Below the pieces are notes generated by a model. That model worked only from the letters and a program-made list of their open reading frames with translations, did no database searches and had not been told where the DNA came from. DNA of 64,000 bases from Alphaproteobacteria bacterium (GTDB lineage Bacteria; Pseudomonadota; Alphaproteobacteria; UBA828), in the NCBI GenBank assembly GCA_965214705.1, contig CBDCCI010000002.1:1824001-1888000 (forward strand), in the 5' to 3' direction. Of the stretch, positions 35,230-42,353 are shown piece by piece. Positions within the stretch are counted from its first letter, which is position 1. Each line of letters opens with the position of its first letter. The translations under genes and the position numbers were made by a program.

Positions 35230-35523
35230 TCAATCGACGCCCTCGACCACCCGGAAGTCGCGCTCCACCGCGCCTTCGAGCTTCGCGACGGCGGCCTGAT
35301 AGGCGGCACCATCGTGGGTGGCGAGCGCCTGTTCGAAGCTCTCGAACTCGACCACGACGGTGCGCCCGGCAATGCCGGCGTCGAAGGCCTGGACCTTGCC
35401 GCCGCGCGCCAGGAACGTGCCGCCGCCGGCGATGATTGCAGGCCCTGCCAACTTGGCGTATTCCGCCAGCGCGTCGGGATCCTTGATCTCCCGGTAGCAA
35501 CTCACCCAGTAACCCTTCGCCAT
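35230..35523 (-). CDS. DUF1330 domain protein
   Basis: KGYWV, GG.FLARGG, RTVVVEFES.E.A and YQAA. Confidence 0.85.
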   Translation of the reverse strand: MAKGYWVSCYREIKDPDALAEYAKLAGPAIIAGGGTFLARGGKVQAFDAGIAGRTVVVEFESFEQALATHDGAAYQAAVAKLEGAVERDFRVVEGVD

Positions 35524-35735
35524 TGTGTCCTCCTTTCGTGATTGCGTCCGACGCGACCGGTGCGTCGGGATGTCGATGACCCGGCCCGTCCCCGGCCTCG
35601 ATAGTCTCCGCCACGGGTTCGTGCGAGGTGTTCTCGGGCTTTTACCCGAGCAGGACGGTGGGGTCGATTGTGGTGCACAGGATGTTATGTGCTATGTGAG
35701 CCAATCTGCGGCGGCAGTGCGGGAGCGGGTGAGAC

Positions 35736-35978
35736 ATGCGGGTCAAGGTGGAGCTCATCGCCATCGAGCTCCCTCAATTCGGCAGCGACAAGAGCCGCGA
35801 CCTCGACCTCGAGGCGGGCGCGAACGTCGCGGACGCGCTCTCCGGCCTCGGCGTGGACGCCGATCCCGCCATCCTCGCCATGGTGAACGGCGAGGCCGTG
35901 CCCCGCGATCAGTGGCCCGAGACGGCGCTCTCGGCAGACGACACGATCAGCCTGTTCCGGCCGTTCAAGGGGGGCTAA
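35736..35978 (+). CDS. MoaD/ThiS family sulfur-carrier protein
   Basis: 80 aa, VNGE motif and C-terminal FKGG; close to the AOR gene. Confidence 0.85.
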   Translation: MRVKVELIAIELPQFGSDKSRDLDLEAGANVADALSGLGVDADPAILAMVNGEAVPRDQWPETALSADDTISLFRPFKGG

Positions 35979-36168
35979 CCTATCCCAAGTACTCTATTTC
36001 TCCAATTGCTTATACCTGACACACAGTTTTTGCTTTTGTCTTCTAACGACCGGGGATAATATGTCCGCCAACATAACAGCCACTTGTCGCCTTGCCCATA
36101 AAAACATACATTTTCATCTATTCAATTTAGTCTTAAAATCGCTAACGCTGTGCCACTTCAGGAAACTC

Positions 36169-36879
36169 TTAACGAGAAATCTCACCGCTTGCCATTACAT
36201 GAATTATTGCTCCCAATAGGTCTTGCGCAGACACTCCTGCGACTTCTTCACACACCTCCTCTAACTCACCTTCCCAGACTTCCCCCCGTCTCGGATTGAC
36301 AATTCCCATTCTCGATACACCGAATTGGTTTGAAGACAAATTCAATGCAGAGTAAACGATTAGCTGCCTTATGTCGCTACTGCGAAACCGTCGATCCACG
36401 GACTTTATCTCAAAAATCGTCTCCTTAACTAACACGTCTCCTTCGGAATTATCCACGAAGCCGCAACCTGCAAATTTTGGACGCAAGACAACGCAATCGA
36501 GTTCCTTTCTAAAGAATTTTCCCAGTCTAATCGAAATCTCTTGCGCCTCCTCTTCTTCCTCTTTCGCAAGACCTTCTCGCAGTACCAGCCCTCGGCCTAC
36601 ATATTGCCCCATTCGCGCCTTTGCAATCCTCCATGCGCTTCGATTCAACTGCGCTTCTGATCTCTTTCGCTTCCGTGCCTCATCTCCAACGCGCTCGCAG
36701 AACACTGAAAAACCATACTCGGCAATCAAAGCCCTATTACTTGTATTCGAATCGTTCATGGGGTTTTCAAAATTCCTGACCTCCGCAATATTCAAGCGAC
36801 GCACGAAATGCTCACAGGTCGGAGCATGTGTGTGCCAAAAGGCATTGTAGGAATGCGCAAATGTTAAGGCATCTATCAT
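36169..36879 (-). CDS. PD-(D/E)XK (RecB/Cas4-like) nuclease-family protein, 236 aa
   Basis: EGDVL...FEIKS...DIRQLIVY...GIVNPRRG. ATG at 36879 overlaps the RT stop codon (ATGA). Confidence 0.72.
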   Translation of the reverse strand: MIDALTFAHSYNAFWHTHAPTCEHFVRRLNIAEVRNFENPMNDSNTSNRALIAEYGFSVFCERVGDEARKRKRSEAQLNRSAWRIAKARMGQYVGRGLVLREGLAKEEEEEAQEISIRLGKFFRKELDCVVLRPKFAGCGFVDNSEGDVLVKETIFEIKSVDRRFRSSDIRQLIVYSALNLSSNQFGVSRMGIVNPRRGEVWEGELEEVCEEVAGVSAQDLLGAIIHVMASGEISR

Positions 36880-38516
36880 ATCGGAGTAACCCAACGAGCA
36901 TTTTTTGCTTTTTTCCCCGCCCATTCCAACATGAATTTTTCAAAGAGACTTAACTCCGTTTGGATATGACGTCGCCAATGACGACCCTCGTCTTTCAAAG
37001 TGTAAGACGCCACAATGAAGGCTGTCCGCTCTGGACCGCTCAACTCCCTGAAGGCATTCTTGACATTTGAGAGCCAATACCAGTCGCCGAGTTTGGCGGC
37101 TGCTAGAATAATACCCCTTCGAATGAGAGGCGAGGACCGCCGCTCGTATATACCTTGAAGAAGGGCCCGGCTCTTGCCTGTCTTAGATCTGGCCAAGAGC
37201 CGAATCCCATAGCTGAGGTGTACATCTACCCGGAAAATATACGAGTCGTTTTCGATCAGCTGTTGCAGTTCATCTATAATCGCCCTTTGTGTTGATGTTG
37301 AGAGCTCGTCAAACACCTGATCAACCACCAGGAGAACGGAAGAAAATATGGGATAGAGTACATCGTTATTGTTCAATAATGAGCGCACTGCGTTGTCCTT
37401 ATAGTTTCCTTCAAGGAAACGAATGGCTGCAACCACTTTGCGCGCTAAAGCCGTATGCACACGGCTCTTAGCCAGCTCTTCTTTGAGCATACTAATAATG
37501 TCAAATTTCCTAACTTCGCGTTTCAATCGCTCAAAGTCCTCATCACGAGTTGGTGAGTAGGGGTCAAATCTTAACGAGAATCGTAGTAGCTGACTACGTT
37601 TGTGAGCATCTGCCGCAGCTTTGCCCTCAGCTTCCGGATCCGCTTCGGGCAATTGATGTCGAAGAGGGTTAGTCGCACGGAACTCTATAGAGGTCATAAT
37701 TCGAGTTTTGGACTTTTGCAGGGACAGGCCTTGGTTGGTGAATAACATTTCGGATAAAAGCACGAGTTGACGGTATGCTGCCTCGCGTGTGTCGGCGAAA
37801 ATGTGATAATCATCGGCAAAGCGAGTAAAGACAACTCCCTGCCCGATAAGCAATTGATCGATTTGATTGATGGTCAGCTCAGAAAGTATGCGTGAGGCTG
37901 GACCGCCAATAGGCAGACCAAACGAACGTGTGTTCGAATAGTTTGCGAGAAATGACATAATTCGTTTCGGATACGGTGTATCCCCAGCAATTTGCATTAA
38001 GGCGTTTTCGATTCGATGATGACCCAATCTGGAGTAAAACTCGGCAATATCGCAAATGACGACGAAAGAATACTTTTTGGATAGTGCTATCGAGTGGTTC
38101 ATGAATTGAAACCATCCAAAATTACGATCAAATAGATCTGCGGTTTTCTTGCTTAAGGAATAGCGATAGGAAAAAACCATTCGCTCAGTCTTGTGGGGTC
38201 GGGTTCTTTCAATTTTGGTGGTGAGGGCCAAGACACACGTAAGAAAATGAGCGTTCCAAATGGGATCAATTTGGGTGGCCCATCGGAAGCCCGAATAGCT
38301 AACAGGGGTTAGAGAGTTTACATTGCGGGGAGAGAAGCGCGTGAGATAGGTATCAAAGTTCTTATCGTATTCCAAAATTAGTTCAACTATGTCTTCCTGC
38401 ATGTCTGAAAAAGCCAAATTTTCGATTGGAAAGGGGAATATATCTGTGTCCCCATGTGCGACTATATTGCGAACAGCCCTAGTGGCTGCACTCCTAAACT
38501 GGGCCGGCTTTACCAT
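36876..38516 (-). CDS. Reverse transcriptase, UG/Abi (DRT-like) group, with a long alpha-helical C-terminal region
   Basis: RT motifs FRWATQIDP, ICDIAEFYSRLGHH, GLPIGGPASRILSEL, catalytic RFADDY and GLSLQKSKT. No maturase, Cas1 or retron VTG motif. Confidence 0.9.
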   Translation of the reverse strand: MVKPAQFRSAATRAVRNIVAHGDTDIFPFPIENLAFSDMQEDIVELILEYDKNFDTYLTRFSPRNVNSLTPVSYSGFRWATQIDPIWNAHFLTCVLALTTKIERTRPHKTERMVFSYRYSLSKKTADLFDRNFGWFQFMNHSIALSKKYSFVVICDIAEFYSRLGHHRIENALMQIAGDTPYPKRIMSFLANYSNTRSFGLPIGGPASRILSELTINQIDQLLIGQGVVFTRFADDYHIFADTREAAYRQLVLLSEMLFTNQGLSLQKSKTRIMTSIEFRATNPLRHQLPEADPEAEGKAAADAHKRSQLLRFSLRFDPYSPTRDEDFERLKREVRKFDIISMLKEELAKSRVHTALARKVVAAIRFLEGNYKDNAVRSLLNNNDVLYPIFSSVLLVVDQVFDELSTSTQRAIIDELQQLIENDSYIFRVDVHLSYGIRLLARSKTGKSRALLQGIYERRSSPLIRRGIILAAAKLGDWYWLSNVKNAFRELSGPERTAFIVASYTLKDEGRHWRRHIQTELSLFEKFMLEWAGKKAKNARWVTPI

Positions 38517-38549
38517 AGTTGATCTTTTCTGTTGTTGGCATACGGTATT

Positions 38550-38831
38550 CTAAATCGGTATCGCGCTTCGGCCGCTCCCGTCGGCGATGGCGATAACGCC
38601 TGTGGCGTTGCCGCCGGCCAGGGCGACGATCCCCATCGCATTACCCCCTCCGATGGCGACGAATCCCATGGCGCTGCCAGGAGCGATGCAGACCAGGCCC
38701 ATCGCGTTGAAGAGGGCGACGGCGACGAGCCCGATGGAGTTCCAGAACCCCGCCGACACGAGCCTGATTGCGTTCTGACTGCAGGCAACGGTGCCGATGG
38801 TGCCCCACTTGCTCTTGATCGCTTCAGCCAT
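38550..38831 (-). CDS. Small hydrophobic protein built from 11-aa Gly-rich repeats
   Basis: Repeats NAIRLVSAGFW / NSIGLVAVALF / NAMGLVCIAPG / SAMGFVAIGGG / NAMGIVALAGG / NATGVIAIADG; GAGGGG RBS; host-like GC. Confidence 0.65.
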   Translation of the reverse strand: MAEAIKSKWGTIGTVACSQNAIRLVSAGFWNSIGLVAVALFNAMGLVCIAPGSAMGFVAIGGGNAMGIVALAGGNATGVIAIADGSGRSAIPI

Positions 38832-38878
38832 GGCTGAGGGTTCCCCTCGCGTTTGAGCGTATCGTAAAGGGTAAAAGG

Positions 38879-39364
38879 TCAGCCGTCGGCGGCGTTCAGC
38901 GCCTGCACCGCCTCCAGCACGGCCTCCACGTGGCCGGGGACCTTCACCTTGCGCCAGATCTTGCTGACGGTGCCGTCGGAGTCGATGAGGAAGGTCGCGC
39001 GCTCGATGCCCATGTAAGTCTTGCCGTAGTTCTTCTTCTCGACCCAGACGCCGTAGCGCTCGCAGATGTCGCTGTCTGCGTCGGAGACCAGGGTGAAGGG
39101 GAGGCCGTACTTCGCCCGGAATTTGTCGTGTTTGGCGGCAGTGTCCTTCGAGACGCCGACGATCTCAGCGCCGGCCGCCGCGAACGCGGGCAGGGCCTCG
39201 GTGAACTCTTGCGCCTCGCGGGTGCAGCCGGGCGTGTCGTCGCGCGGGTAGAAGTAGAGCACCACCGCCTTGCCGCGCAGGCTGTCGAGGCTCAGAGAGC
39301 CGCCGTCGTTGGTGGGCGCCGTGAACCCCGGCGCAGGCGTGCCGGCTTCGATCGCCGTGGTCAT
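38879..39364 (-). CDS. bcp: Peroxiredoxin Bcp
   Basis: VLYFYPRDDTPGCTREA, GVSKD, ERATFLID and VKVPGH. Confidence 0.93.
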   Translation of the reverse strand: MTTAIEAGTPAPGFTAPTNDGGSLSLDSLRGKAVVLYFYPRDDTPGCTREAQEFTEALPAFAAAGAEIVGVSKDTAAKHDKFRAKYGLPFTLVSDADSDICERYGVWVEKKNYGKTYMGIERATFLIDSDGTVSKIWRKVKVPGHVEAVLEAVQALNAADG

Positions 39365-39377
39365 GGTCGTTCTCCTC

Positions 39378-42353
39378 TCATTCTGTGGTCTCGCGGTCGA
39401 GCGCCGCCGCAGGCGCCGCAACCAGGCGATGATAGGCGGCGCGGACGCGATCCTGAATGGCGACAACCCTCTCCTCAAGGGCGGCGAAATCCTCGATCCC
39501 CATGGCCCGCGCCAGGGTCTCGCGCACGCCGGGGGTGAAGCGCTCGACCTCGCGGTTGGTGCCGACGGTGAGCCGGAGCAGGCCCTGGAGGCGCTGGAGG
39601 AAGGCCAGCATCTCGGCAAGCTCGGTGGCGTCGTCCGAGGCGAGGACGCCGGCCTCGCCCAGCCCGCGGTACATCGACTGGGTCGATTGAACCAGGATCG
39701 AGGGGTGGCGCGCGGCGTGGTGCAGCAGGTGGTACTGGGCGATGAATTCGAGGTCGAGCAGGCCGCCCCGCACGTGCTTGAGGCGCCAGCGGTTCTCGGT
39801 GTGGCGCTCGCCGTCGATGCGCTCGCGCATGGCGGCGACGTCCGCCAGCAGCGCGTCGGAATCGCGCGGGGCGCAGAGGACCGCGCGGATGTCCGCCATC
39901 ACCGCCGCGGAGAGGTCCGGATCGCCCGCGACCGGGCGCGCGCGGGTAAGCGCCATGTGCTCCCAGGTCCAGGCGTCCTGCTCGTGGTAGCGGCGGAAGG
40001 CGGCGGCCTCGGTCGCGATCGGGCCTGAGGTGCCCGACGGCCTGAGCCGGGTGTCGATCTCGTAGAGCCGGCCTTCGGCAGTGAGCGCGCTCACGGCGTT
40101 GGAGAGACGCTTGGTGAAGCGGGCGTAGTAGTGGCTCGGCGCGAGGCCCTGAGCGCCGTCAGATTCCACGTTCGTTTCGTCCGGCAGGCCGTAGAGGAAG
40201 ACCACGTCGAGGTCGCTGTCGAAGGTGAGCTCCCGACTGCCGAGCTTGCCCATGCCGAGCACGGCGAAGGATGCACCCGGCAACGATCCGTGGCGGCGGG
40301 CGAAGTCCTGGTGCACGCGCGGCAGCAGGGTCTCGATCACCGTGTCGGCGATATCGGAGAGCGCGCCGGAAAGCCGGTCCACCGCCACATCGCCCCGCAG
40401 AATCTGCATGCCGACCTGGAACTCGCGCTCGTGCTGCCAGCGGCGCACGCCGTCGAGCACGTCGTCGTAGTCGCTGGAGGGCGCGAGCGCTTGCGCGAGG
40501 TCGTGGATCAGCTCGTCGCGATTCGGCAGGCGTTGGTGCAGGTCGCCGCTGATGAGGCCTTCGAGCAGGCCGGGGCTGCGGCTCAGGTGCTCGGCGATGC
40601 GGGGCGCGCTGCCCAGGATCTCGGCGAGCTGGGCGAGTAGGCCGGGGTTGTCGTGCAGCAGCAGGAAGGGCTGGACCCCCGACGGCAGCCCGGCGAGGAA
40701 TTCGTCCAGCTTGCGGAAGGCGGAGTCGGGATCGGCGGTGTTGCAGAGAGCGCGGAGGAGGGCCGGCATGAGCTCGGTGAGGAGCTCTCTCGCGCGCGTG
40801 CTGCGGGTCGCCTGGATGCGGCCGTGATGCCAGCGGCGCACGGTCGCCGAGACGCCCGAGGCGTCGCCAAAGCCCATGCGCTCCAGACTCGCGAGGGTGT
40901 CGGGGTCGTCGGCGGTGCCCGTGAACACCAGGTTACCGCCTTCGTCGCCGAGGTCGGGCTCGTCCTCGAAGAGCGCGGCATAATGCTCCTCGACGGAGCG
41001 GACATGGCTTTGCAGTGAATCGGCGAGGTCTGCTTCGTCGGCAAAACCCATGAGGCGGGCGAGCGCGGTGCGTGCGTCTGCGCCGTCGGGAATTCGTAGG
41101 TCCGACTCGTCGTCGATCATTTCGATGCGGTGCTCGAGACGGCGGAGAAAGCGGTACGACTCGATCAGCGCCTCCACCGCCCACTCGCTGGTGCGCTCGG
41201 CGGCGGCGAGCGCGCTGAGCGCGTCGCAGGTGGCGCGGAAGCGGAGCGAATCATCGCGGCCGCCCCAGATGAGCTGCTGAGTCTGCGCGTAGAGCTCGAT
41301 CTGGCGGATGCCGCCCCGGCCACGTTCGATGTCGTGGCCTGCGACGTCGAAGTGCTGGCGGCTGGGCTCGGCGTTGATCTGGCGCTTGATCGACTGGATG
41401 TCCTGGATGGCGGAGAGGTCGAGATACTTGCGCCAGATGAAGGGGCGCAGGCGCTCGATCATGTCGGCGCCGACCGCCATGTCGCCAGCGGCCGGGCGCG
41501 CCTTGATCATCGCGGCGCGTTCCCAGTTCTGCCCGTGGCTCTCGTAGTACTGCTCCGCCGCCGCCGTCGAGAGCGCGAGCGGCGTGGAGCCCGTGTTGGG
41601 CCTGAACTTGAGGTCGGTGCGATAGATGCAGCCGTCGTCGGTGCGCTCACCGAGCAGGGCGGCGAGATCGCGCACGAGGCGGTGCAGGGTTTCGGCGGGC
41701 TCGCCCCGTCCTTGGTGGCGCACGCGCTCGGGGTCGAACAGCACCAGCAGGTCGAGCTCGCTCGAATAGGTAAGCTCGCCCGCGCCGAGGCCGCCGACGC
41801 CGAACACGGTGAGCCCGCACGCCGCCGGTTCGTCTTCGTTTGGGCGCGCGAGGGTGCCCCGTGCGGCGGCCTCCCTGAGCAGGTGGTCGAGCGCGCTTTC
41901 GAGCACGGTGTCGGCCAGCCGGGTGAGGGCCTGGGCGATGCGATCCAGCGGCCAGGCGCCGGCGAGCTCGGCGAGCGCTGCGGTGAGCGTCGCGCGCCGC
42001 TTGGCTCCCCGAAGCCGGCGGGCGAGGGCGCGGCGGTCGGTGGTCTGGCCGGCGGCGTCCGAAATCTCGGCGAGCGCGCTCGCGAACGCGGCGTTGGGAC
42101 CCTGTTCGGCCACCTCGCGAAGCTGGGCCGGTTCGCGGACCAACGCTCGACCGAGCGCAGGGGCGTTCCCGAACACGCCATCGAGGAAGGCACGCGCCTG
42201 ATCATCGCCATCGAGTGCGCTCGCGAACGACTCTTCGTCGCCGCCGAGCGCGGCTGCCGCTGCGAGCCACTCGTCACGACCCGCACGCGCGCGTTCGCCC
42301 GAGGCTGGCTCGGGACACATCGCATCGTCTGTCAGGAAGGGCAGTCGCGACAC
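39378..42353 (-). CDS. glnE: Glutamine synthetase adenylyltransferase/adenylyl-removing enzyme
   Basis: Two nucleotidyltransferase repeats: GQNWERAAMIKAR, MGKLGSRELTFDSDLD, YEIDTRLRPSG, AWTWEHMAL and KHVRGGLLDLEF. Confidence 0.93.
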   Translation of the reverse strand: MSRLPFLTDDAMCPEPASGERARAGRDEWLAAAAALGGDEESFASALDGDDQARAFLDGVFGNAPALGRALVREPAQLREVAEQGPNAAFASALAEISDAAGQTTDRRALARRLRGAKRRATLTAALAELAGAWPLDRIAQALTRLADTVLESALDHLLREAAARGTLARPNEDEPAACGLTVFGVGGLGAGELTYSSELDLLVLFDPERVRHQGRGEPAETLHRLVRDLAALLGERTDDGCIYRTDLKFRPNTGSTPLALSTAAAEQYYESHGQNWERAAMIKARPAAGDMAVGADMIERLRPFIWRKYLDLSAIQDIQSIKRQINAEPSRQHFDVAGHDIERGRGGIRQIELYAQTQQLIWGGRDDSLRFRATCDALSALAAAERTSEWAVEALIESYRFLRRLEHRIEMIDDESDLRIPDGADARTALARLMGFADEADLADSLQSHVRSVEEHYAALFEDEPDLGDEGGNLVFTGTADDPDTLASLERMGFGDASGVSATVRRWHHGRIQATRSTRARELLTELMPALLRALCNTADPDSAFRKLDEFLAGLPSGVQPFLLLHDNPGLLAQLAEILGSAPRIAEHLSRSPGLLEGLISGDLHQRLPNRDELIHDLAQALAPSSDYDDVLDGVRRWQHEREFQVGMQILRGDVAVDRLSGALSDIADTVIETLLPRVHQDFARRHGSLPGASFAVLGMGKLGSRELTFDSDLDVVFLYGLPDETNVESDGAQGLAPSHYYARFTKRLSNAVSALTAEGRLYEIDTRLRPSGTSGPIATEAAAFRRYHEQDAWTWEHMALTRARPVAGDPDLSAAVMADIRAVLCAPRDSDALLADVAAMRERIDGERHTENRWRLKHVRGGLLDLEFIAQYHLLHHAARHPSILVQSTQSMYRGLGEAGVLASDDATELAEMLAFLQRLQGLLRLTVGTNREVERFTPGVRETLARAMGIEDFAALEERVVAIQDRVRAAYHRLVAAPAAALDRETTE

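Follow-up and report, generated by a model that had tools for sequence, protein, structure and literature searches.

Does a reverse transcriptase (RT) gene that overlaps a nuclease gene on an island of foreign DNA represent an undescribed phage-defence system or a further copy of one already named, and how might its two products act together? The question is raised by a window of 64,000 nucleotides from an alphaproteobacterial genome (GTDB lineage UBA828; contig CBDCCI010000002.1, positions 1,824,001 to 1,888,000; all coordinates below are those of the window), in which an RT and a PD-(D/E)XK nuclease are encoded by adjoining genes on the minus strand. An earlier reading of the letters, hereafter the original prediction, had proposed the pair as a candidate for an undescribed system of the defence-associated reverse transcriptase (DRT) type. 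We find instead that both proteins are matched end to end by existing PADLOC models and that the pair has been published as DRT type 8 (DRT8; PMC9226505), so that the locus is an ordinary, intact new member of a system type that was catalogued and validated in 2022. As a whole it is best explained as an intact, canonical DRT8, comprising a UG7 RT and its dedicated PD-(D/E)XK effector, that was horizontally acquired at a variable hotspot, a reading to which we assign a probability of roughly 0.9.

The profile matches are the most direct evidence for this identification. The PADLOC model Drt8 (PDLC03783) aligns with residues 9-536 of the RT over positions 5-492 of its 493 (E = 4.5e-155, 515.7 bits), the next-best model being RT_UG21 at 110 bits, and the model RTasPDDEXK (PDLC03797) is matched by the nuclease over its whole length (1-226 of 226, E = 5.1e-61). 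Equating the PADLOC name 'Drt8' with the published UG7 group rests on the shared name and on the co-match of RTasPDDEXK; on that footing, we consider it nearly certain that the pair is DRT8. The original prediction had allowed that full coverage by an existing model would mean that the pair is not new, and the PADLOC search, while bearing out its further caution that the pair could prove to be a DRT variant already named, removes the novelty on those same terms.

According to Mestre et al. (2022, Nucleic Acids Research; PMC9226505), UG7 is a class-1 group of UG/Abi RTs that comes in two variants, one of which (150 of 385 members) is paired with 'cluster 17', a remote PD-(D/E)XK homologue. This combination was named DRT type 8 and protects Escherichia coli against phage T5, a defence reported to be lost when the catalytic domain of the RT or the active site of the PD-(D/E)XK protein is mutated. 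The present pair belongs to the same RT group and the same nuclease family by profile, and it agrees with the published system in its two-gene order, its overlapping stop and start, and its class-1 RT with an alpha-helical repeat domain, with no architectural difference. Both active sites, essential in the tested system, are intact in this copy (RT D156, D235 and D236; nuclease D148, E157 and K159). Phage resistance that needs both enzymes has been shown in E. coli for a DRT8 homologue and is predicted from sequence for this one. What sets the copy apart is its divergence, with identities of at most 71% (RT) and 68% (nuclease) to any protein in a large protein collection and, in the RT search, at most 53% to any GTDB species representative, together with its position in a high-GC (guanine plus cytosine) chromosome.

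Translation at the exact coordinates confirmed the 546-residue RT of the original prediction, with its GDTDIFPFP signature and its CDIAEFY, GLPIGGPASR and FADD motifs. Conservation of these and other residues was assessed in an alignment of 27 sequences and then in a wider set of 77, to which the following counts refer. The signature residues G22, D23, T24 and D25 are present in 76 sequences, the remaining one having a gap; catalytic D235 and D236 are invariant, whereas position 156 is D in 75 and E in two. Within motif B, G200, P202, G204, G205 and R209 never vary, nor do K270, Y74, R78, Y117 and Y320 elsewhere in the protein, and position 268 is K in 76 of the 77.

An AlphaFold2 (AF2) model of the RT (mean predicted local distance difference test, pLDDT, 81; predicted template-modelling score, pTM, 0.79) consists of an N-terminal helical fingers region, a palm, a low-confidence linker (residues 290-322) that terminates in an invariant DPYS motif, and a C-terminal domain (about 324-537). 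From residue 299 to 537 the model contains helices only, in keeping with the helical C terminus that had been expected from the sequence. The loop at residues 68-83 resembles a mobile functional loop, since it is highly conserved yet modelled with a pLDDT below 50. A Foldseek comparison with the PDB was led by DRT4 (9vdv, E = 5.7e-10), DRT6 (9wy8, E = 7.7e-10), UG15 (9l9s), AbiA (8oz7), Abi-P2 (7r08) and AbiK (7r07), with group II intron RTs and DRT9 ranked below them and the best matches spanning about 420-680 alignment columns; a sequence-profile search of the same database placed Abi-P2 first (E = 1.2e-14). On the evidence of the model, the enzyme is predicted to be a class-1 UG/Abi RT, in which the RT domain continues at its C terminus into an alpha-helical repeat (alpha-Rep) domain. 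This agrees with the original view of a UG/Abi-type defence RT with a helical C-terminal domain and a translationally coupled nuclease.

Among these relatives, DRT4 (UG15) and DRT6 (UG12) are the best structural matches and share the RT and alpha-Rep layout, and the tested DRT4, DRT6 and DRT8 systems are all reported to defend against T5 (PMC9226505 for DRT8). They differ in being single-gene systems, whereas DRT8 has a separate effector of the DNA-nuclease type; the effector activity of DRT4 is reported to be its own RNase, dependent on deoxynucleoside triphosphates (dNTPs). AbiK, Abi-P2 and AbiA have the class-1 UG/Abi fold in common with the RT, and the priming loops of AbiK (Tyr44) and Abi-P2 (Tyr61) have a counterpart here in a conserved, flexible N-terminal loop, but none of the three has a PD-(D/E)XK partner, a HEPN domain is fused to AbiA, and the PADLOC model AbiP2 scores only 51.9 bits on the present RT.

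Several other assignments were tried and rejected. Membership of DRT4 itself is contradicted by the scores of NCBIfam Drt4 (NF041749, 59.8 bits against a cut-off of 450) and PADLOC Drt4 (70.6 bits against 515.7 for Drt8), and by the separate effector gene. A retron is contradicted by the NCBIfam scores for the St85 (39.3 against a cut-off of 235) and Ec67 (12.9 against 450) types, by the lack of an Rfam match, by the mere 33 bp upstream of the RT, a length confirmed here, and by a 190-bp downstream tail without a stable fold. A group II intron RT or maturase is contradicted by TIGR04416 (58.2 bits against a cut-off of 300) and by the absence of intron RNA from 35400-39200. The statement that the RT is not of the retron, group II intron, diversity-generating retroelement or Cas1-linked kind holds.

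The partner is an RT-associated PD-(D/E)XK nuclease of RecB/Cas4 type and is the probable DRT8 effector. Its predicted RecB/Cas4-like motifs (EGD...EIK...QLxxY) are present, translation giving EGD...EIK...QLIVY, and D148, E157, K159, Q172 and Y176 are invariant in all 71 nuclease sequences. No Pfam family matched the protein. Its AF2 model (pLDDT 93) had no Foldseek match at E <= 0.001, the best, at 1.1e-3, being the Cas4-family ACE1; the leading rows, all with marginal E-values, were Cas4/RecB-type nucleases and their kin (ACE1, Dna2, AddB, AdnA, Cas4, MGME1 and lambda exonuclease). VIA-align, run against 48,161 representatives, gave Z-scores of 9.8 for ACE1 (root-mean-square deviation 4.2 A over 170 aligned residues), 9.7 for MGME1, 9.5 for AdnA and 8.8 for Cas4, with DinG-N, AddA, RecE, Dna2, Exo5 and RecB at 5.5-8.4. 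The top 20 rows were without exception nucleases of the RecB/Cas4/lambda-exonuclease type, and unrelated helical proteins appeared only below Z 5.5.

The nuclease thus has its fold (Z 7.2-9.8) and its D...ExK...QxxxY catalytic signature in common with Cas4, ACE1, AddB/AdnA, Dna2, MGME1, RecE and Exo5, at sequence identities of 9-18%; the fold in common with Cas4 shows kinship at the level of the superfamily only. It lacks the C-terminal cysteine cluster by which Cas4 binds an iron-sulfur cluster, ending instead in ...ASGEISR, and it partners an RT rather than Cas1/Cas2, a helicase or an Argonaute. A CRISPR-associated Cas4 was ruled out, the only PADLOC Cas4 match being marginal (Cas4a2, E = 0.0038) and the upstream gene of the operon being an RT.

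The original prediction had suggested asking whether RT homologues keep the nuclease downstream, and they do. The nuclease lies immediately downstream of the RT in all five loci found in species-representative genomes (RT identity 42-53%). A scan of metagenomes found 197 relatives, and among the best 80 loci, which were kept (RT identity 39-70%), a same-strand nuclease directly follows the RT in 74; none of the 72 loci whose contig continues for 481 bp or more past the RT lacks it, and the contigs of the six loci from which it is missing end within 253 bp. For 46 of the 74, the RT alignment stops at the very base at which that of the nuclease starts, as expected from an overlapping stop and start. 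Divergence is much faster in the nuclease than in the RT, with RT identities of 60-70% corresponding to nuclease identities of 41-56% and an RT identity of about 40% to some 22-36%. One of the five genome loci, on a contig of an uncultured alphaproteobacterial metagenome-assembled genome (L005), is a decayed DRT8, in which the RT is matched over residues 14-257 only, split between two frames, and the nuclease over residues 108-236 only.

At the junction in the present locus, the expected ATGA overlap with the 236-residue partner was found at 36876..36879, the final RT codons, ...CCG ATA TGA, sharing the ATG of the second gene. From the earliest in-frame ATG (36924) the nuclease would have 251 residues, and from 36879 it has 236. 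The shorter form is favoured because the RTasPDDEXK profile covers residues 16-251 of the 251-residue form and because all 29 rows of the nuclease alignment align from a conserved residue at the 36879 start; 23 of them start there (22 with M, one with V). The remaining six carry an N-terminal extension added by the gene caller and have L or V at the conserved start position, a sign that alternative start codons may be in use.

DRT8 of this clade is a bare two-protein module without a detectable non-coding RNA (ncRNA), as judged by the lack of a conserved third gene, of a conserved non-coding element, of an Rfam match and of a stable fold in the tail. When 596 flanking open reading frames (ORFs) of 85 loci were clustered, no conserved third gene emerged, the largest cluster, of an ABC/AAA-type ATPase, coming from four loci. 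Rfam searched at E <= 1 over 35400-39200, group II intron and retron RNA included, returned only two sub-threshold rows at chance level. The fold of the 190-nt tail had a z-score of +1.21, no more stable than shuffled sequence, and blastn of the tail and of the 33-bp spacer against the 85 related loci gave only chance matches of 11-25 nt.

Table 1. Features of the two-gene operon and the island that holds it, in window coordinates
Feature	Position	Strand	Basis or remark
RT gene, 546 aa	36876..38516	minus	open reading frame list
PD-(D/E)XK nuclease gene, 236 aa	36169..36879	minus	open reading frame with start at 36879
ATGA stop/start overlap of RT and nuclease (translational coupling)	36876..36879	minus	direct sequence reading
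RT N-terminal signature GDTDIFPFP, residues 22-30	38427..38453	minus	translation
RT loop SLTPVSYSGFRWATQI, residues 68-83, with invariant Y74	38268..38315	minus	strong conservation, pLDDT <50
RT motif A CDIAEFY, residues 155-161, catalytic D156	38034..38054	minus	translation
RT motif B GLPIGGPASR, residues 200-209	37890..37919	minus	translation
RT motif C FADD, residues 233-236, catalytic D235 and D236	37809..37820	minus	translation
Nuclease catalytic core D148, E157-x-K159, Q172-xxx-Y176	36352..36438	minus	translation
Low-GC insertion, sole content the two-gene operon	35979..38549		GC content and end of homology with congeners
AT-rich non-coding tail, 190 bp, 3' of nuclease	35979..36168	minus	no sign of structured or conserved RNA
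Spacer, 33 bp, between upstream gene stop (38550) and RT ATG	38517..38549	minus	sequence

The pair arrived by horizontal transfer, as a cassette of just the two genes on an island of foreign DNA (Table 1). The low-GC island noted at the outset is real: its roughly 2.6 kb, which lie between a ThiS/MoaD-like gene and a 93-residue ORF whose stops both border the island, have a GC content of 46.0%, against 67.6% and 67.8% in the 10-kb flanks. In the genomes of 30 relatives, homology covers both flanks and never the island. On the left it ends at 35977-35979, at the stop of the ThiS-family gene, and on the right it resumes at 38550 in four congeners that have the 93-residue ORF and at about 38887-38898 in five others. 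The island contains two ORFs only and no integrase or transposase, it has no meaningful terminal direct or inverted repeats, and no transfer RNA was found in the window. The RTasPDDEXK profile matches three of the 44 genomes of the taxonomic family, this one included, the kind of scattered occurrence that is usual for defence genes spread by horizontal transfer.

The site just past the stop of the ThiS/MoaD-like gene is a variable, cargo-swapping hotspot in the genus, since it is empty in one congener (G008, L021), where the flanks are 3 bp apart, and holds different low-GC (45-52%) cargo in others (positions 35976-38900 compared with L015-L023). The cargo includes, in a sister species, a 334-residue PDC-S19 candidate defence protein with a DUF3644 and a restriction-endonuclease-like domain (PADLOC E = 4e-128), and elsewhere a 229-residue trypsin-like protein, ORFs of 201 and 300 residues without an assigned family, and a EutQ-like cupin beside which the 3' end of the ThiS gene is duplicated over 46 bp; in a further congener (G005) the site has a 776-bp gap whose longest ORF, of 131 residues, has no family match. 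Flanking the island are the ThiS-like gene, the 93-residue ORF, a bcp-like ORF and a glnE-like ORF, the names bcp and glnE having been assigned by reading the translations rather than by a family search. The 93-residue ORF (38550-38831, minus strand), directly upstream of the RT, is rich in glycine and alanine, with repeated GxxAMGxVAI-like units and no Pfam or PADLOC family. Four congeners have it at the same position and five lack it, and it may supply transcription of the RT.

How such a pair might act can be approached through its structural relatives. AbiK and Abi-P2 are reported to synthesize template-independent DNA primed on Tyr44 and Tyr61, respectively, in a loop of the fingers; DRT4 and DRT6 are likewise reported to make template-independent DNA that is covalently joined to the protein, DRT4 priming on Tyr125 in the palm, and the priming tyrosines of AbiA (Tyr298/303) are placed in the linker between RT and alpha-Rep domains. 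The abstract of a 2026 paper attributes untemplated synthesis to class-1 DRTs. As to the use of the product, the DRT4 single-stranded DNA (ssDNA) is said in published work to be bound by phage proteins resembling single-stranded-DNA-binding protein (SSB) and, together with raised dNTPs, to activate the RNase activity, and in the class-3 DRT1 a DNA adduct is described as keeping a nitrilase effector dormant.

By analogy with DRT4, DRT6, AbiA, Abi-P2 and AbiK, the present RT would use no RNA template; as an oligomer, it would synthesize ssDNA without a defined sequence, linked covalently to the residue that primes it, its own Y74, Y117 or Y320. One of these three may be the priming tyrosine, each being placed like that of a relative, in the fingers loop, the palm region and the linker, respectively. 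The protein-linked ssDNA adduct would serve as an infection sensor or switch that holds or controls the Cas4-like nuclease. Changes brought about by a phage, such as binding of an SSB-like protein or a rise in dNTPs, would alter the adduct and so release or activate the bound Cas4/RecB-like nuclease, which would go on to destroy DNA, thereby aborting the infection. That protein-primed, untemplated ssDNA synthesis gates the nuclease in DRT8 is a tentative proposal, to which we give somewhat less than even odds. We hold with the same reserve that a separate Cas4/RecB-type nuclease of ssDNA ends, tethered to such an adduct, may be the abortive-infection effector, a coupling that would not yet have been described for any DRT. 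The broader idea already present in the original prediction, that the RT product may activate, guide or be processed by the nuclease, is a reasonable one.

A prediction of the complex between the two proteins, also suggested originally, gave a score of 0.49, against 0.00 for the best of three controls; the runs have at least 65% of their contacts in common, with a partner pLDDT of at least 83. Of 80 solved complexes, 58 reach the mark used in this test, as do two of 110 mismatched pairs; only seven of the same 80 complexes, but both of the passing mismatches, reach it with a score of 0.60 or less. The support that the prediction lends to direct binding of the RT to the nuclease is weak.

That weakness is one of several points that weigh against our account. 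The mechanism is drawn wholly by analogy; a table in a 2026 review states 'DRT8 ... dedicated mechanism not yet established', and no paper on the mechanism was among the literature matches listed, subscription journals lying mostly outside the search. Invariance leaves three candidate tyrosines for priming, and the profile alignment does not place Tyr61 of Abi-P2 on Y74: it starts at Abi-P2 residue 105 (native numbering, construct 1-541), so that Tyr61 is outside the aligned part. The HMMER alignment of the RT with DRT4 similarly begins after Tyr125. Mestre et al. (PMC9226505) also describe a second UG7 variant without the nuclease (165 of 358 as printed), so that UG7 RTs might be able to work in the absence of such a partner. 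Finally, a promoter scan found no promoter-like site in the 33-bp spacer 5' of the RT, and a cassette of 46% GC in a host of 68% GC might be poorly expressed or silenced.

The rival that survives best concerns the role of the nuclease. On this view the ssDNA made by the RT is itself the toxic or decoy agent, as was first proposed for DRT4 and DRT9, and the Cas4-like nuclease is not a killing effector; it only trims or turns over the product, keeping the system quiet before infection or processing the DNA afterwards. The closest folds of the nuclease (ACE1, MGME1, AdnA/AddA, RecE, Dna2 and Exo5) are of RecB/Cas4 type, and several of these act on ssDNA ends or flaps. The first model of DRT4, as reported, likewise had ssDNA building up to toxic levels when its 3' end is covered by a phage DNA-binding protein and so kept from the exonucleases of the host, and the nuclease-less second UG7 variant (PMC9226505) is in line with an RT that can do without a partner. 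We nevertheless consider this unlikely. Mutation of the nuclease active site in the tested DRT8 is reported to have abolished defence (PMC9226505), leaving neither toxicity nor intact defence, and the nuclease is present in all of the metagenome loci with room for it downstream. According to a preprint (Rousset 2023), moreover, one DRT8 has a PNP/Cap17 ATP nucleosidase, a known killing effector, in place of the usual nuclease. This substitution marks the partner as an exchangeable killing effector, and a role as effector fits it better than one in DNA trimming.

Less likely still, and in our judgement quite improbable, is that this intact DRT8 is carried as a passenger, silent or without function: a recent arrival that is not expressed in its present host or has ceased to defend it. 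The spacer without a recognisable promoter and the strongly foreign GC content speak for it, as do decayed copies elsewhere (L005, and locus L024 of congener G004, described below). The scan itself is uninformative on this point, because its counts (one promoter-like site on the plus strand and three terminator-like sites inside genes) are no higher than in shuffled sequence. Against decay stand two full-length ORFs that have kept their invariant catalytic residues and their ATGA coupling. Comparison of positions 35400-39400 with contigs of public runs (X1, X5, X6 and X7) further revealed an identical sequence in contigs of three runs from two studies, and the island is, on account of this lack of any difference, a stable part of the genome.

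The weakest alternative, an undescribed DRT-type system made of a new RT clade and a new nuclease partner, draws on the fact that the pair looked unassigned, since Pfam gives only RVT_1 (residues 132-279) in the RT and nothing in the partner, NCBIfam has no model above its cut-off for either, and homologues are labelled in their sources only 'RNA-directed DNA polymerase' or 'hypothetical protein', so that standard annotation would not reveal the system; it is very improbable in view of the full-length, high-scoring PADLOC matches, the same architecture in relatives and the published description and validation of the pair (PMC9226505).

Further observations were made in the same public runs and genomes. 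In a run labelled as a sponge metagenome, pieces of the island occur with about 1-3% differences, and one contig joins 38577 to 38883, keeping the island without most of the 93-residue ORF; a low-depth contig of a related organism in run X1 joins 35974 to 38879 through 31 other letters and has the site without the island. In a different chromosomal place of a congener (L024, G004:C1:2133658-2137371), a low-GC patch encodes a nuclease of the RTasPDDEXK type (222 bits, 24% identical to the present one), upstream of which there is only a 236-residue ORF that has no Pfam family and that tblastn did not match to the present RT; the locus may be what is left of a truncated DRT8-like system from another subclade.

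Across the genome that carries the present locus, the Drt8 profile finds one Drt8 and 43 weaker RT-core matches (at most 58 bits), many of them identical copies. At least 13 of these (for example L007-L013; contigs C1, C2 and C3) score identically and lie in open frames of 439 residues. One copy (L013) adjoins a group II intron D1-D4-6 RNA (RF02005, 154 bits), a positive contrast for the Rfam search of the DRT8 locus. These matches suggest a proliferated family of group II introns in this genome of 7.9 Mb and three contigs.

The main value of the analysis is negative, in that it removes the claim of an undescribed system. The locus is at the same time a further member of one of the few named DRT types that a 2026 review lists without an established mechanism, and a minimal, ncRNA-free operon whose catalytic and candidate priming residues have been mapped is a reasonable subject for biochemistry. 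Its place in a hotspot free of integrases and repeats, which has received at least one other candidate defence gene (PDC-S19), bears on how such cassettes move by flanking homology.

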